Source of the DNA: a virus
Taxonomy: Duplodnaviria > Heunggongvirae > Uroviricota > Caudoviricetes
Length of the DNA: 64,000 bases
Reading direction: 5' to 3' (one strand)
Virus record (IMG/VR): IMGVR_UViG_3300036876_000145
Location: 19,489 to 83,488 of that record
Below are positions 36,490 to 40,686 of the stretch, piece by piece. Numbering within the stretch: position 1 is the stretch's first letter; each line of letters begins with the position of its first letter. The position numbers were made by a program, and so were the translations under genes. The notes below the pieces were generated by a model. That model was not told where the DNA came from, searched no databases, and saw only the letters and a program-made list of their open reading frames with translations.

Positions 36490-36667
36490 TGAAGAATTTA
36501 TAGCCTGTATCCGAGCTTCAAAACTCACCATCAGTGAATTGGCTAACGCTGTGAGTGTTAGTCAGCCGACGATAAGGCGTTGGAGATCAGGTATGAACCT
36601 CCCGCATCAAGCAGTACGCGAGTCGATTTTAAAGTTTTTGAAAGCAGCTCTATCGGCAATTGGATAG
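36479..36667 (+). CDS. small HTH DNA-binding protein (paralog B)
   Basis: 62 aa; SQPTIRRWRSGMNLPHQAVRESILKFL; 3' end overlaps the tRNA-Arg(CCG) start. Confidence 0.5.
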   Translation: MITDEEFIACIRASKLTISELANAVSVSQPTIRRWRSGMNLPHQAVRESILKFLKAALSAIG

Positions 36668-36732
36668 TCATCCTCCCTCCGAAGGAGGTTTAAGTGTGGG
36701 TTCGAGTCCCACTGGAGCTACCAAGTTACGGG
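36645..36732 (+). tRNA. tRNA-Arg (CCG)
   Basis: Acceptor agctcta/tggagct, anticodon loop ctCCGaa, T-arm gtgggttcgagtcccac, CCA encoded. Paralogous to the ACG and TCG genes. Confidence 0.65.
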
Positions 36733-36784
36733 GAGAGATTGTAGACAAGCACAGGGTCACCAGATTTTAGATTTCGCTCGTGTA

Positions 36785-36851
36785 GCTTAACTGGATAAAG
36801 CGCAGCCCTGCGAAGGCTGATTTTACGGTTCGAGTCCGTTCACGAGCACCA
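36785..36851 (+). tRNA. tRNA-Arg (GCG)
   Basis: Acceptor gctcgtg/cacgagc, D-arm gcttaactggataaagc, anticodon loop ctGCGaa, T-arm acggttcgagtccgt, CCA encoded. Confidence 0.65.
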
Positions 36852-36856
36852 GATTT

Positions 36857-36934
36857 GGTTCCATCGGCAACTGGAGAGTCAACTGCGTTACGAACGCGGA
36901 TCAGTGTAGGTTCGAATCCTACTGGGACTACCAA
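36857..36934 (+). tRNA. tRNA-Arg (ACG)
   Basis: Acceptor ggttcca/tgggact with G-U pairs, anticodon loop ttACGaa, T-arm gtaggttcgaatcctac, CCA encoded. Confidence 0.7.
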
Positions 36935-37043
36935 GTTTAACTACGAACTTTGTTTGACTTTCGTATTAAGTAGTGCTGTGCCAATTGTCATCGGAAAAGA
37001 ACGGCGTCCCAACGCAATTGGTACTGGCTTGAATTTTTGGAAA

Positions 37044-37130
37044 AGTTTAACACGCCTCCATCGGCAACTGGATAGTCAACATCGCTTCGAACGATGATTA
37101 GTGTAAGATCGTACCTTACTGGGGGCACCA
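37044..37130 (+). tRNA. tRNA-Arg (TCG)
   Basis: Acceptor gcctcca/tgggggc, anticodon loop ctTCGaa, unusual T-loop atcgtac, CCA encoded. Confidence 0.6.
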
Positions 37131-37135
37131 AGTTT

Positions 37136-37363
37136 ATGAAGATTAATTTTCGAGGACAAATGGTCGAAGATAGGTCTGGTATAGACGAAGATAAACAGTA
37201 TCGTTGTACCGATTGTGGGAAGGTGACATTTGGTAAAGATTTATCTTTAGTTTCTTACCAAACTTCAATGGAAGTAAGGGGAGAACTTGTTCCTACAGGA
37301 GAAATGGTAATTAACACTCGTCTGTGTCCCGAAGATAGAGGACATGTAGTAGAAGAGATTTGA
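37136..37363 (+). CDS. zinc-ribbon mini-protein
   Basis: ORF 37094-37363 trimmed to MKINFRGQ; CTDCGK ... CPED. Confidence 0.4.
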   Translation: MKINFRGQMVEDRSGIDEDKQYRCTDCGKVTFGKDLSLVSYQTSMEVRGELVPTGEMVINTRLCPEDRGHVVEEI

Positions 37364-37368
37364 TTTTT

Positions 37369-37454
37369 GTGGAGTAAACCGTAATTGGCAGCGGGCTGCA
37401 CTGTTAATGCAGTGTCGTAAGACTCTGGGGGTTCGAGACCCTCCTCCACAGCCA
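37369..37454 (+). tRNA. type II (long variable arm) tRNA with a GTT anticodon loop
   Basis: Acceptor tgtggag/ctccaca plus G and CCA; anticodon stem ctgca/tgcag with loop ctGTTaa; 14-nt variable arm gtcgtaagac; T-arm gggggttcgagaccctc. Confidence 0.5.
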
Positions 37455-37460
37455 AATTTT

Positions 37461-38030: not shown

Positions 38031-38102
38031 TGGGAGAAGATAGACACTTGATCAGTGGACCGTTTCGTGAAATCCTTCAATCCCACCGGTTTTAGAAAGT
38101 TT

Positions 38103-38178
38103 GCGTTGGTAGCTCAATTGGCGGAGCACTCGACTCTTAATCGATAGGCTGTGGGATCGTTGCCCACCCAGCGCACCA
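38103..38178 (+). tRNA. tRNA-Lys (CTT)
   Basis: Acceptor gcgttgg/ccagcgc, D-arm gctcaattggcggagc, anticodon loop ctCTTaa, unusual T-loop atcgttg, CCA encoded. Confidence 0.6.
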
Positions 38179-38536
38179 AGATTTAGGAATTGATTATAAG
38201 CCAGTAAGCGTGTATTATTATGATTGACCCAAATCATCTCTACACTTTGCATCAGACATACACAGGAACTGATTGTGCTTTGTGCGGGAAGCCAGCGACA
38301 GAGCATCCATTAGAGTATTGGATGATTAACGGTAAACAACAAGAATTAGTTAGAATTCATATTGGGGAATGAGCTAGTAGGGTTATAGCGTTCCGCTGAA
38401 GACGGAAAGAATCCAGTTCAACTCTGGGATTCCCCACCAAATTTAAAAAGGAGAAGTAAAATGAACTACATGAATTTAAAACAGGAGGTACAAAATATGC
38501 ATACTCATTAAGATACTGCAAAGGAGCGGTAGAACT

Positions 38537-39352
38537 ATGCGCCCAGACATGGCCAAACTCCTCACTGAAGCTGAGAGGTACGGTTCAAAAAACCGATCTC
38601 AGAAGTGGGGTAAGCGGTTCAAATATAACCCTGATTCGGACTACGATGATCAACCATATCGTGCTTCGATGTCCCGACATCGGCAAGATGACTGCGGGAA
38701 AAACCTTAGCGATGTACTCAACCCATTAAAGGGTTATCTCCACAAAAGCGTGGGACGCCATTGGGATGATGTCTACAGTGAAATTTGTCAAAACCTTGAT
38801 CGTCGTAGTGTAACTGGATTACATGTATTCACTCATCTTTGGCAATTCGTAGCCAAAAATACTGTGATGTGCATTGACGGAAAGGTACGAGAATGGGCCG
38901 GTGGTGGCGGCTATTTGACTGAGCCCTATAATTATTATATCCACCCATATACCGGGATTTTGTGCGACAGTGGGTACAGCGGATGGCGCGAATGGCGGCG
39001 CAGCAATCGCACCAGGAAAGAAAAGCCCGTCACCGAGATTCGACTTTCGGACATCGGGCGTTACGAGAAGTTCGACGGCATCTGGTACTACTGCGAGAAC
39101 TACGCTATCAAGCACGAGGGCAAGACGCTGATTCGTCCGGGCTATTTCCGGGTCAATGACGCCATCAAGATCGATGGCGAAGTCAACGAGGAAGGCGAGC
39201 CCTTGGTTTTTTACTTAATCAAATGGACTGAGCACATCAGCACGAAACGCCAGCTTAACCGGAAAGAACTGAAAAAAGCAGGATTGAAAAATGACCCTCC
39301 GAATCCTAAAGCTTTCAGCAGACGGGAACGAAAGGCTTTGGAGAGAAAGTAA
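38537..39352 (+). CDS. hypothetical protein (GC-rich segment)
   Basis: 271-aa ORF; no motif recognised. Confidence 0.55.
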   Translation: MRPDMAKLLTEAERYGSKNRSQKWGKRFKYNPDSDYDDQPYRASMSRHRQDDCGKNLSDVLNPLKGYLHKSVGRHWDDVYSEICQNLDRRSVTGLHVFTHLWQFVAKNTVMCIDGKVREWAGGGGYLTEPYNYYIHPYTGILCDSGYSGWREWRRSNRTRKEKPVTEIRLSDIGRYEKFDGIWYYCENYAIKHEGKTLIRPGYFRVNDAIKIDGEVNEEGEPLVFYLIKWTEHISTKRQLNRKELKKAGLKNDPPNPKAFSRRERKALERK

Positions 39353-39421
39353 GTATTAGGGGGTATGAGCAGAATGCAAAATGTTTTAGGCTTTTAGACT
39401 CCTTAGAAAGGAAGGTAAATT

Positions 39422-39967
39422 ATGGCAGACACTTTAATTCTTGACCAAAACTGGCAACCACAGTCTTTTTGTAACTGGCAGAACGCTGTGAAATTGATAT
39501 ATGAAGGGCGTGCTCAAGTTATCAAAGAAGACGAGGGTGGGCGCATTTTACGGTCTCCTTCTCTGGAATGGAAGATGCCAAGGGTTATTGTTGTCAAAAA
39601 CGCTTGGGTTCGTAGGAAGCGTTTGTCCGTTCCTTTCTCCAGACGCAACATCGCGGTTAGGGATAATAGCGGGTGTCAGTACTGCGGTAGGGTATTGAAG
39701 ACTCAGGAATATACTCTTGACCACGTAATGCCTCGTTCTCAAGGTGGTGTATCTTCATGGACCAATTTGGTGCTCGCCTGTGTGCGCTGCAACAAGCGTA
39801 AGGCCGGTCAGACACCTAAGGAAGCTGGCATGCACTTACTTAAGCAGCCCGTGGAGCCGAAGAAGGACGATCCGAAGTACAACTTCAAGCTTCACATTAA
39901 CAAGCTACGGCCAGAATGGAAAGAGTGGGAAACCTGGCTATATTGGAATGTGGAACTAGAAGCGTAG
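39422..39967 (+). CDS. HNH endonuclease
   Basis: CQYCG...LDHVMPRSQGG...NLVLACVRCNKRK canonical HNHc motif; followed by the hairpin tgacacg...cgtgtca. Confidence 0.75.
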   Translation: MADTLILDQNWQPQSFCNWQNAVKLIYEGRAQVIKEDEGGRILRSPSLEWKMPRVIVVKNAWVRRKRLSVPFSRRNIAVRDNSGCQYCGRVLKTQEYTLDHVMPRSQGGVSSWTNLVLACVRCNKRKAGQTPKEAGMHLLKQPVEPKKDDPKYNFKLHINKLRPEWKEWETWLYWNVELEA

Positions 39968-40065
39968 AAGCTTTGACACGATCCTTTACGTGTCACATCT
40001 GGTCCCGGATGTGCTGACCCAGCTTAAAGGGTAGGGACTACCAATTTATGAACGGAAGTTGAGCC

Positions 40066-40142
40066 ATCCTCGTACCGGCCTCGTTTCCTAAACGAGTAAC
40101 CGTAAAGGAGCAATGTGGGTTCGAGTCCCACCGAGGATACCA
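40066..40142 (+). tRNA. tRNA-Arg (CCT)-like with a reduced D-arm and enlarged variable region
   Basis: Perfect acceptor atcctcg/cgaggat plus A and CCA; T-arm gtgggttcgagtcccac; anticodon hairpin ctcgt-ttCCTaa-acgag. Only 7 nt between acceptor and anticodon stem. 18-nt variable region. Confidence 0.45.
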
Positions 40143-40295
40143 GGTTTTTATGTACATCAAATGCAGCATATTCGATGTGGATTTGGATCATGTATTTGAT
40201 GAGTTTCTTTTTCAGTTGACAGATATAACACTTCCTGATACACTGGAACTTGATGATCAAAAGATAGATAATCAAGAAGATTATAAACTACGAGA

Positions 40296-40341
40296 GTATT
40301 TATTGAAGGCTACAAAATAAGCATTGAAGGTCTTGCGAAAA
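40296..40341 (+). repeat. 46-bp direct repeat copy 1
   Basis: gaaggctacaaaataagcattgaaggtcttgcgaaaaccaagctgg, identical to 63955-64000 at the window end. Confidence 0.7.
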
Positions 40342-40612
40342 CCAAGCTGGCTAAATCAATGCTGGATGTTGCATTCGGGAAATAAGAATTAAGAATTCTC
40401 GACGCCTTGGGATACATGGAGTCGTTAAACGACTGCGGACAGTGTGTAAGTCTGGCGAAAGCCAGCAGCGCTGGTTGAAACAGTTAAGGGCGGCGTTAGC
40501 CGCCTAGAATCTCCCGCCTTTAGGCGTGGGAGTATCAATATGATGGTAATTCTTAACAACACGCTCACCACGCTTCACCTCAGACCTAAACGCTAAATTT
40601 CCGCGTTCAAAA
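40342..40612 (+). ncRNA. non-coding structured region with multiple GNRA-capped hairpins
   Basis: No ORF. Hairpins agtcgtt-aa-acgact, ctggc-GAAA-gccag, gggcggc-gtta-gccgcc, ctcccgcc...ggcgtgggag. Lies between the 46-bp repeat and tRNA-Arg(TCT). Confidence 0.3.
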
Positions 40613-40686
40613 ATCTCTAAATGCCTCTATCGTCCAACTGGAAGGGCACCGGCCTTCTAAGCCGTGGATCCGGGTTCAAGTCCTGG
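40613..40686 (+). tRNA. tRNA-Arg (TCT)
   Basis: Acceptor gcctcta/tggaggt, anticodon loop ctTCTaa, T-arm ccgggttcaagtcctgg, CCA encoded. Confidence 0.65.

Follow-up and report, generated by a model that had tools for sequence, protein, structure and literature searches.

Transfer RNAs that lack a D arm are known from mitochondria, and a 2020 review of non-canonical tRNAs places D-arm loss in mitochondria only (PMC7609411). In mammalian mt-tRNA-Ser(AGY) and in Ascaris mt-tRNA-Ser(UCU) a short connector stands in place of the D hairpin and the anticodon helix is effectively extended (PMC7609411); the mitochondrial D-armless forms have short variable loops, no GG motif, degenerate T loops and a flexible boomerang or Y shape. 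All known bacterial tRNAs were described as cloverleaves in a 2024 paper, which also reported an engineered tRNA without a D arm, mini HisT, that was accepted by HisRS, EF-Tu and the ribosome of E. coli (PMC11551756). Bases 11-25 are deleted in mini HisT; its predicted shape is a Y, and its stability depended on a pnp mutation (PMC11551756). Here we analyse a tRNA gene with the arginine anticodon CCT, tRNA-Arg(CCT), located at 40066-40142 of a 64,000-nucleotide (nt) stretch of viral DNA (IMG/VR record IMGVR_UViG_3300036876_000145, positions 19,489 to 83,488; hereafter the window). In the initial annotation it was described as a D-arm-reduced member of a complete set of six arginine tRNAs. Sequence comparisons indicate that the gene is not a decayed copy but typifies a large family of arginine tRNAs in phages, and it is probably a working elongator tRNA for AGG with a re-threaded core.

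The anatomy given for the gene in the initial annotation, a connector of 7 nt, a variable region of 18 nt and a total length of 77 nt, was read directly off the sequence. The 5' acceptor strand ATCCTCG is followed by the connector TACCGGC, the anticodon arm CTCGT-TTCCTAA-ACGAG, the variable region TAACCGTAAAGGAGCAAT, the T arm GTGGG-TTCGAGT-CCCAC, the 3' acceptor strand CGAGGAT, the discriminator A and an encoded CCA. All stems are perfect, with 7/7 pairs in the acceptor. No D hairpin lies between positions 9 and 26, and the gap between the acceptor and the anticodon stem is only 7 nt. The gene was not called by ARAGORN in standard mode. The Rfam tRNA model (RF00005) matched 40066-40139 with 36.6 bits, above its gathering score of 29; in this alignment 11 D-arm positions are deleted and 15 nt are inserted in the variable region. 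The minimum free energy (MFE) fold reproduces the four helices described below (-25 kcal/mol, z = -2.4).

Other readings of the same letters were rejected. The mitochondrial mode of ARAGORN folds 40069-40128 (60 nt, with a weak T arm), and a run at the 80% threshold gave a 'Gly(acc)' at 40008-40077; both are inferior to a model with stems of 7, 5 and 5 bp, which is backed by Rfam and by covariation. An intron or a permuted gene is absent from the MFE and RNAalifold folds, and the Rfam search returned no group I intron or other Rfam family at E<=10.

Homologues were sought first by an exact-pattern scan of IMG/VR, in which the pattern combined the connector with the anticodon loop and the first bases of the variable region. 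Two further viral contigs were found, one carrying a gene of the same architecture with different stem sequences, the other a tandem of three, whose anticodons are UCU, CCU and CCG. We call genes of this architecture rewired. A looser pattern, CTAA N7 A N3 TAA N1-2 GRA N2-3 ATG N3 GTTYRA, which leaves the connector, the stems and the pairing triplets unconstrained, matched 37 viral loci. At 31 of these the acceptor was paired 7/7 and the anticodon and T stems at least 4/5 each; the remaining six were obvious chance matches, close to the expected number. An anticodon-free version of the pattern retrieved CCT and TCT genes only. A covariance model, R1, was then built from the Arg(CCT) homologues, and pattern and covariance-model searches together gave about 60 homologues from viral contigs, metagenome-assembled genomes (MAGs) and cultured phages. 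Extra copies found by the R1 scan include an Arg(ACG) form at locus L029, 689-766.

The family is well separated from canonical tRNAs. Members score 51.6-91.3 bits with R1 (52-90 bits for those outside the seed), against at most about 31 bits for the canonical tRNAs at all loci. The window gene scores 82.7 bits (E ~1e-21), its sequence having belonged to the seed alignment. The homologue in Escherichia phage phi92 reaches 38.6 bits with the Rfam tRNA model. Among 48 members ARAGORN made two calls, both over-long. All members have an acceptor stem of 7 bp, the connector U-A-Y-NNN-N, anticodon and T arms of normal form, and a variable region of 17-24 nt with the order N2-8, NNN, UAA-N-UGGA-N2-3-AU. 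The contigs that carry them range from 38 to 66% GC.

Secondary structure was examined in an alignment of 31 distinct members (A1), in which the acceptor stem occupies columns 1-7/68-74, the anticodon stem 15-19/27-31, the T stem 51-55/63-67 and a fourth helix, helix X, columns 11-13/35-37. Helix X pairs connector bases 4-6 with variable-region bases 4-6. Over the four helices 99.2% of the cells were paired and double-sided changes were seen in 18/20 pairs; in the acceptor, anticodon and T stems 15/17 pairs covaried. None of 500 shuffles reached the observed values, and slid partners were 38-45% paired. Pairing in the acceptor, anticodon and T stems is partly built in, as members were selected on those stems; helix X and the compensatory variety are independent of that selection. 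Helix X was 100% paired in the 31 sequences and all three of its pairs covaried (pair 1, CG/UA; pair 2, GC/AU/CG/UA; pair 3, GC/CG/AU/UA), as in CGG/CCG, CAG/CUG, UCC/GGA, CUC/GAG, CGU/ACG, CAC/GUG and CGA/UCG. RNAalifold, run unguided, gave the same four-helix structure including helix X, and the top 16 column pairs by mutual information all lay within this structure, among them 12-36 and 13-35 of helix X. When 48 members were aligned to the covariance model, 98.6% of the cells were paired and 19/20 pairs covaried. No stem was found inside the variable region, either in the MFE fold of the window gene or by RNAalifold; the region pairs with the connector. Comparative analysis of the aligned sequences establishes the four helices and the conserved motifs.

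These results bear on the reading of the Arg(CCT) gene as a decaying pseudogene, formed by deletion of the D arm and insertion into the variable region, which would leave an arginine set of really five members. ARAGORN is silent on the gene, and degenerate tRNA-like pieces do occur in the same array (a 'tRNA-???' at 37952-38022 and a 5' half near 37826). About 60 homologues of the same odd architecture, with compensatory changes in all four helices, speak against decay, as do the intact consensus of the anticodon loop and T loop and the fact that the gene is identical in four contigs of different samples; one of these contigs has an insertion of 342 bp immediately upstream. The gene also fills the sole missing arginine anticodon slot, and its relatives do likewise at other loci. 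The broken stems that decay would leave in most homologues were not observed, and the covariation effectively refutes the pseudogene reading, which we regard as extremely improbable.

Outside the helices, several unpaired positions are near-invariant, namely the U and A after the acceptor strand, the A before the 3' strand of helix X and the U-A-A after that strand. After UAA the family has (N)-U-G-G-A, two or three variable bases and A-U ahead of the T stem, again near-invariant. In the T arm G53, T54, T55, C56, A58 and C61 are invariant or nearly so, and the loop GTTCRA..C is conserved. The stretch A-A-N-U-G-G-A matches the D loop of canonical tRNA-Arg, A14 R15 Y16 U17 G18 G19 A20. An A after the D-loop GG was present in 40/50 canonical Arg tRNAs and in 22/334 other canonical tRNAs of the same loci; GGA was present in 47/48 rewired members and lies at 40107-40109 in the window gene. 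A20 is the main D-loop identity element for bacterial arginyl-tRNA synthetase (ArgRS; see PMC9976931). In the rewired genes this A adjoins GG by sequence, which alone cannot place it at the position that ArgRS reads. The canonical paralogs in the window pair the A14-A15 motif with a U right before the T stem, read here as the A15-U48 Levitt pair, and the rewired gene retains both. The spacer between the anticodon stem and the helix X triplet is 3 nt long in most members and 8 nt (CGUUAACC) in a subgroup from enterobacterial phages; the spacer therefore behaves like a variable loop.

The pairing between the connector and the variable-region triplet, together with the D-loop signature, indicates that the D domain was transposed, not deleted. 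The description of the gene as D-arm-reduced is therefore not quite accurate: the covarying CGG/CCG pairing and the Arg-type D-loop signature indicate that the domain stands elsewhere in the molecule. We propose the following arrangement. The connector CGG, one further base and then the anticodon stem would be equivalent to positions 23-25 and 26. The CCG of the variable region, which pairs with this CGG, would take the role of positions 10-12, and would be followed by an Arg-type D loop (U13 A14 A15 .. G18 G19 A20), a short spacer, A-U48 and a normal T arm. Segment 10-20, which normally separates position 9 from position 21, would have been relocated to the site of positions 45-47 in the variable loop. 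In every tRNA the D stem is coaxially stacked on the anticodon stem; in the rewired tRNA the two would merge into one continuous hairpin with an internal loop. The tertiary contacts U8-A14, A15-U48, G18-psi55 and G19-C56 could still form. The ArgRS elements A20, C35 and U36 would be retained, A20 being read by ArgRS, and an L-shaped fold, cleavage by RNase P, charging by host ArgRS and use by the ribosome would all be possible.

Compared with canonical tRNA-Arg (E. coli ICG, T4 UCU), the rewired family has the same 7-bp acceptor, 5-bp anticodon stem with a 7-nt loop (U33, C35, A37), 5-bp T stem, GTTCRA..C loop and CCA end, a segment that matches A14-R15-..-G18-G19-A20 and U48 by sequence, the same location in phage arrays and a score that passes the Rfam threshold. 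It differs in having no D hairpin: the equivalent of positions 23-25 stands directly after U8-A, and the equivalent of positions 10-12 stands with the D loop 3' of the anticodon arm, at the site of the variable loop. With the D-armless mitochondrial tRNAs it shares the short connector and the effectively extended anticodon helix. Unlike these, the rewired family has a GGA D-loop-like segment, a canonical T loop and a covarying 3-bp equivalent of the D stem, and it is Arg-specific and found in phages of bacteria; the window gene itself departs from the mitochondrial type by its GG motif, its 18-nt variable region and its canonical T loop GTTCGAGTC. A long variable region, here of 17-24 nt, is also a feature of class II tRNAs (Ser, Leu, bacterial Tyr and Sec) and of allo-tRNAs (PMC5389517). 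In class II tRNAs, however, this region forms a self-contained stem-loop beside a D arm, whereas in the rewired family it lacks a stem of its own and is paired to the 5' connector. The rewired tRNAs have a 7/5 arrangement of acceptor and T stems instead of 8/4 or 9/3. In contrast to the artificial mini HisT, the phage family is natural and keeps equivalents of both the D stem and the D loop; the acceptance of mini HisT by the E. coli machinery speaks for the feasibility of such a tRNA.

All 60 members with at least 51 bits have an arginine anticodon (CCU, UCU, CCG or ACG). C35 followed by U36 or G36, the anticodon part of tRNA identity for bacterial ArgRS, is present in the window gene, which has CCT, and in all members of at least 51 bits, which are NCU or NCG. 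At 20 loci with both canonical and rewired Arg tRNAs, the window among them, the anticodons did not overlap in any case; at 16 of these 20 a canonical YCU gene stands beside a rewired gene with the other YCU anticodon. Felixounavirus EC6 is a 21st non-overlapping locus, with 25 canonical tRNAs, ACG as the sole canonical Arg anticodon and UCU in the rewired gene. In phi92 no tRNA-Arg is annotated in the stretch of the tRNA region that was read, and the rewired gene there is unannotated. In the window the rewired gene supplies CCU, which completes the six Arg anticodons. Comparative evidence establishes that the family is confined to Arg anticodons and, with phage Magritte as an exception (see below), is deployed beside canonical Arg tRNAs without redundancy.

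The Arg(CCT) product could instead be charged with another amino acid, for example by SerRS or LeuRS through the long variable region, and so recode AGG/AGA. The length of that region, the annotation of one homologue in phage 121Q as tRNA-Leu, the variable discriminator and a relative with a GAU anticodon in phage Magritte would be in keeping with this. We consider it very unlikely: the variable region has no stem-loop of the class II type and pairs with the connector, the Arg-specific GGA context, which is proposed to hold A20, is present in 47/48 members, and CCG and ACG together with YCU are the set of anticodons expected of a single amino-acid identity.

The non-redundant use of anticodons also bears on whether these RNAs decode at all. 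A conserved tRNA-like RNA might act as decoy or sponge towards a host nuclease, or towards a modification enzyme, that targets tRNA-Arg; it might also be a regulatory RNA or a processing signal inside the tRNA transcript. A decoy should duplicate the targeted anticodons, whereas the rewired genes complement the canonical ones without overlap at 21 loci, and the part of the phi92 tRNA region that was read has no annotated tRNA-Arg. A37/A38, U33, the 7-bp acceptor, the discriminator with CCA, and an A after GG that would be A20 are retained, all of them features needed for translation. On the other side stand the non-canonical core, the presence of Thg1-like and RlaP genes in the window, and the link between phage tRNAs and conflict over host tRNA cleavage (PMC7824862). 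A non-decoding role is unlikely, though less so than charging with another amino acid.

Several observations weigh against our reading of Arg(CCU) as a working elongator tRNA with a re-threaded core. The discriminator varies within the family, with A, G and U roughly equal, which is unusual for bacterial tRNA-Arg. The variable-region motif of the window copy is UAA-A-GGA-GCA-AU, where the family has UAA-N0-1-(U)GGA-N2-3-AU; the window copy has no U ahead of GG and otherwise follows the consensus. Three members at about 52 bits (L004, L008 and L029) fit R1 less well. U8, A14, A15, U48 and G18G19 are invariant and cannot covary, and we infer the three-dimensional re-threading from motif identity and strand order. 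In Microbacterium phage Magritte a rewired UCU gene (56.6 bits, with an imperfect helix) stands beside an annotated canonical Arg(tct). The same phage (L056, OR553905.1) has at 3091-3167 a weaker relative of 43 bits with a GAU (Ile) anticodon and the helix CCC/GGG. Redundancy and identity drift therefore do occur. A D-armless artificial tRNA was degraded by PNPase in E. coli (PMC11551756), and the in vivo stability of the rewired tRNA is therefore not guaranteed.

In the GAU relative UAGUAGGU replaces UAAUUGGA, and neither GGA nor the Arg-type A20 is present; the gene may have switched identity within the rewired lineage, or it may be a copy in decay.

Rewired genes are widely distributed. Contigs of GTDB genomes yielded 12 members at 11 loci. 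They are from Acidobacteriota MAGs (Bryobacterales and relatives), where they lie mostly within arrays of at most 24 tRNA genes, and from a Saccharibacteria MAG, a Mesorhizobium MAG and the isolate Aquamicrobium zhengzhouense cd-1. Two of these loci carry a solitary rewired tRNA-Arg(UCU) outside tRNA arrays, L055 (cd-1, NZ_JADGMQ010000004.1) at 4053-4127 and L045 (the Mesorhizobium MAG) at 3099-3172. These alphaproteobacterial chromosome contigs suggest a prophage or island context in a cultured isolate. Among phages, members were verified with R1 in Agrobacterium phage Atu_ph04, Limnohabitans phage DC31, Salmonella phage SSBI34 (Vequintavirinae), Streptomyces phages Yaboi and TomSawyer, Microbacterium phage Magritte, Vibrio phage 1.101.O, Escherichia phages phi92 and Antha, Felixounavirus EC6, the Ounavirinae record LPML1, Kuravirus HC-25922 and the jumbo phage JNE01 (Asteriusvirus). 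A BLAST search with one copy matched 224 GenBank phage records, 214 of them at a coverage of at least 80%. The matches include Felix O1 and several phages isolated on E. coli K-12, and at the BLAST level also Klebsiella phages; close Kuravirus matches were limited to two records. A phi92-type copy was found in none of 5,426 complete E. coli genomes, so that in this host the gene is phage-borne and not a host or prophage gene.

As a rule the family is mis-annotated or unannotated. Among the matches listed the site is unannotated in most records, and a few (Antha, REP8 and others) carry 'tRNA-OTHER'. In Escherichia phage 121Q (NC_025447.1) a rewired Arg(UCU) homologue at 73592-73655 is annotated as tRNA-Leu, and in Felix O1 (AF320576.1) the feature at 25952-26020 is labelled 'unknown'. 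A paper on Kuravirus reported one software-found tRNA-Arg(TCT) per genome and did not remark on how it is built (PMC9965538). Rewired genes are thus apparently called at times by Infernal-based tools, the architecture having seemingly gone unnoticed. We found no description of the rewired tRNA family in the literature on D-arm-lacking, non-canonical and unusual phage tRNAs, a coverage outside which most subscription journals lie, and the family appears to be undescribed.

In the window, ARAGORN counted 21 tRNA genes, all on the + strand. The initial annotation had proposed one tRNA for each arginine codon, and this was borne out, as five of the six anticodons (CCG, GCG, ACG, TCG and TCT) were called by ARAGORN and the CCT gene, which that program did not call, lies above the Rfam tRNA threshold (Table 1). 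The end coordinate given there, 40686, is 11 nt short of the end of the TCT gene at 40697. Owing to the A54..U58 of its T loop (AUCGUAC), the Arg(TCG) gene went undetected by the Rfam tRNA model, also at E<=10, and the TCG assignment is therefore that of ARAGORN only. The shared 5' half of the CCG, ACG and TCG genes, from which their common descent had been proposed, was seen again in the alignment: the D-arm segment ATCGGCAAYTGGAKAGTCA is near-identical in the three, their pairwise identity is 71-77%, compared with 46-59% to the TCT and GCG genes, and all have a 3-bp D stem, an additional base ahead of the anticodon stem and a variable loop of 6-7 nt. On this evidence they are classed as paralogs. 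Their anticodon stems differ throughout, so that the anticodon switch was not a recent single-base change. In the Arg(CCG) cloverleaf the D stem has 3 bp, one extra base stands at position 26, the variable loop is 7 nt long and CCA is encoded; CCA is encoded in all tRNA genes read at 36,400-41,000.

Table 1. Positions in the window of the arginine tRNA genes, of the segments of the rewired gene and of two RNA-repair-associated genes.
Feature	Position	Strand	Basis or remark
Rewired tRNA-Arg(CCU), 77 nt including CCA	40066-40142	+	Rfam tRNA 36.6 bits; R1 82.7 bits; MFE fold
Acceptor 5' strand ATCCTCG	40066-40072	+	Pairs with 40132-40138; all 7 pairs covary in the family
U-A-C, proposed U8, A21 (or A9) and Y22	40073-40075	+	U and A invariant in the family; numbering inferred
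CGG, 5' strand of D-stem-like helix, proposed 23-25	40076-40078	+	Pairs with 40100-40102
Anticodon arm CTCGT/TTCCTAA/ACGAG	40080-40096	+	Anticodon CCT at 40087-40089; U33, A37; 5/5 pairs covary
CCG, 3' strand of D-stem-like helix, proposed 10-12	40100-40102	+	Covariation, RNAalifold, mutual information
UAAAGGAGCAAU, putative transposed D-loop-like segment, proposed U13 A14 A15 G18 G19 A20...U48	40103-40114	+	
T arm GTGGG/TTCGAGT/CCCAC, canonical T loop	40115-40131	+	G53, T54, T55, A58 and C61 invariant in the family
Acceptor 3' strand CGAGGAT, discriminator A, encoded CCA	40132-40142	+	Sequence
tRNA-Arg(CCG)	36646-36723	+	ARAGORN; Rfam tRNA 38.0 bits; paralog group 1
tRNA-Arg(GCG), fully canonical	36776-36851	+	ARAGORN; Rfam 62.2 bits
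tRNA-Arg(ACG), paralog of CCG and TCG	36857-36933	+	ARAGORN; Rfam 32.8 bits; 73-77% identity to paralogs
tRNA-Arg(TCG), paralog of CCG and ACG	37054-37130	+	ARAGORN; T loop AUCGUAC (A54/U58 swapped)
tRNA-Arg(TCT), canonical	40623-40697	+	ARAGORN; Rfam 51.9 bits
Thg1-like 3'-5' nucleotidyltransferase (tRNA 5'-end repair family)	29-874	+	PF04446, E 2.8e-23
RlaP nucleotidyltransferase (RNA-repair-associated)	33432-34265	+	PF10127, E 2.4e-18; PMC7824862; ~1.7 kb upstream of the tRNA array

As in jumbo-phage arrays, the tRNA genes of the window form a dense array on one strand with interspersed HNH genes and with RNA-repair genes alongside (PMC7824862). Compared with other phage arrays, six Arg anticodons including both ACG and GCG put it at the saturated end of the range; otherwise it is ordinary. 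Arginine codons in the open reading frames (ORFs) of the element are distributed as CGT 22.5%, CGC 20.3%, CGA 17.0%, CGG 10.1%, AGA 18.6% and AGG 11.5%. The initial annotation suggested escape from host Arg-tRNA limitation or from an Arg-anticodon nuclease, and this spread over all six codons would fit the former. It is also conceivable that the six-member set serves mainly in evading an Arg-specific anticodon nuclease and not in meeting codon demand. Colicin D-type nucleases cut all Arg isoacceptors, according to work cited in PMC7824862; Thg1-like and RlaP genes are present in the window, and ACG, GCG and TCG together amount to duplicated decoding capacity. But the element also has multiple Ser, Lys and Asn tRNAs, arginine not being singled out, and all six Arg codons are used, at 10-22% each, which is sufficient to explain a full set. 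Evasion as the main purpose is therefore doubtful, although of the alternatives considered here it is the least improbable.

The A54...U58 T loop (ATCGT..), in place of T54...A58, is found at 37054-37130, 38103-38178 and 40709-40784 in the window, and in 18/376 canonical tRNAs across the retrieved loci. Positions 54 and 58 covary strongly (348 T/A, 18 A/T, 1 T/T and 5 A/A), as a swapped reverse-Hoogsteen pair. The same loop occurs in the tRNA-Phe of phi92, which is flagged 'pseudo' in its record.

Further RNA-like pieces were noted in the array. The 'tRNA-???' of ARAGORN at 37952-38022 has a 6-nt anticodon loop (AUUAAC), a weak acceptor stem and a score of 44.5 bits with the Rfam tRNA model; either the gene has degenerated or its loop is an unusual one. 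At 37826-37930, GGGTGTAGCTCAGTAGTAGAGCACCTGATCTAA resembles a tRNA 5' half, comprising acceptor, D arm and the first part of an anticodon arm with CTA, and a hairpin of ~75 nt (TTGAGCGAGT...ACTCGCTCAA) lies 3' of it. This piece had no Rfam match; it may be a tRNA that was disrupted or one that carries an insert. Between tRNA-Asn and tRNA-Gln, at 37457-37554, there is a structured RNA of ~98 nt with a 10-bp closing stem (MFE -34 kcal/mol, z = -2.7; 0/200 shuffles as stable), which is not tRNA-like and had no match in Rfam. The sequence tagggactaccaattt at 40030-40050 is similar to tgggactaccaagttt, with which the Arg(ACG) gene ends. Located directly downstream of an HNH endonuclease gene (39422-39967) and directly upstream of the rewired CCT gene, it may be a remnant of a tRNA displaced by insertion of the endonuclease.

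The window comes from a large phage-like element of peat metagenomes. The same element was found in many of these, including the Stordalen Mire 'WOOD18' assemblies. Its G+C content is ~44% and its notable ORFs all lie on the + strand. The encoded proteins include a NAD-dependent DNA ligase, an SNF2 helicase, an HNH endonuclease, an AAA ATPase, Ku, a C5 methylase, a TnpB-like protein, a protein bearing major-vault-protein domains, an amino-acid permease, the Thg1-like enzyme and the RlaP nucleotidyltransferase. A BLAST search of 35800-41100 against GenBank phages and plasmids gave generic tRNA matches only and no close relative. A search for related loci with a neighbouring ORF of 271 aa gave one weak match and no useful synteny.

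Large phages are described as combining tRNAs of their own with RNA repair that counters attack by the host on tRNAs, and the jumbo-phage literature ties proteins of the Thg1-like and RlaP kinds to the repair of attacked tRNAs (PMC7824862). The two genes of the window fit this picture, with nothing specific to arginine. Together with an HD-domain gene (10041-10811) and an AAA ATPase gene (10880-12391) they are spread around the tRNA arrays, and the four look like a toolkit for the maintenance or repair of RNA or tRNA. About 280 bp upstream of the RlaP gene, at 30675-33155, an ORF of 826 aa encodes a major-vault-protein shoulder and repeat domains (PF11978, E 3.6e-26; PF17795); it had no match in PHROG and is an unusual protein for a phage-like element. 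An amino-acid permease gene (41462-42778) directly follows the tRNA array, and ORFs resembling an ABC-transporter ATPase and permease lie at 19879-22553; transporters are unusual phage cargo. A Cas12f1-like/TnpB TNB domain (E 1e-24) in an ORF of 229 aa at 44543-45232 points to a truncated TnpB/IS200-605-type element.

On balance we favour the view, with somewhat less assurance than for the window gene itself, that the rewired genes constitute a natural, non-cloverleaf and Arg-specific class of phage elongator tRNAs that would decode AGR, and sometimes CGN, codons for hundreds of phages in bacterial cytoplasmic translation. Such a class would have been overlooked because ARAGORN rarely calls its members and most GenBank records leave the gene unannotated. 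The rewiring may have been kept as concealment from a host factor that recognises the core of canonical tRNA-Arg, or the rewired form may simply be a neutral lineage that has spread among phages. The systematic annotation gap means that phage tRNA tallies and analyses of Arg codon usage against tRNA content are probably biased.

If functional, the rewired tRNA would be the first natural exception to the cloverleaf that operates with bacterial ribosomes and synthetases, and it would be used by phages of E. coli, Salmonella, Vibrio, Agrobacterium, Streptomyces and probably Acidobacteria. The gene is carried by cultured phages that grow on E. coli K-12 and is thus immediately testable. Through it one can readily ask which features ArgRS, RNase P, EF-Tu, modification enzymes and defence nucleases directed at tRNA actually recognise, and it could provide orthogonal tRNA scaffolds for engineering. 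A functional rewired tRNA would mean that the tRNA core can be re-threaded with its tertiary contacts kept.

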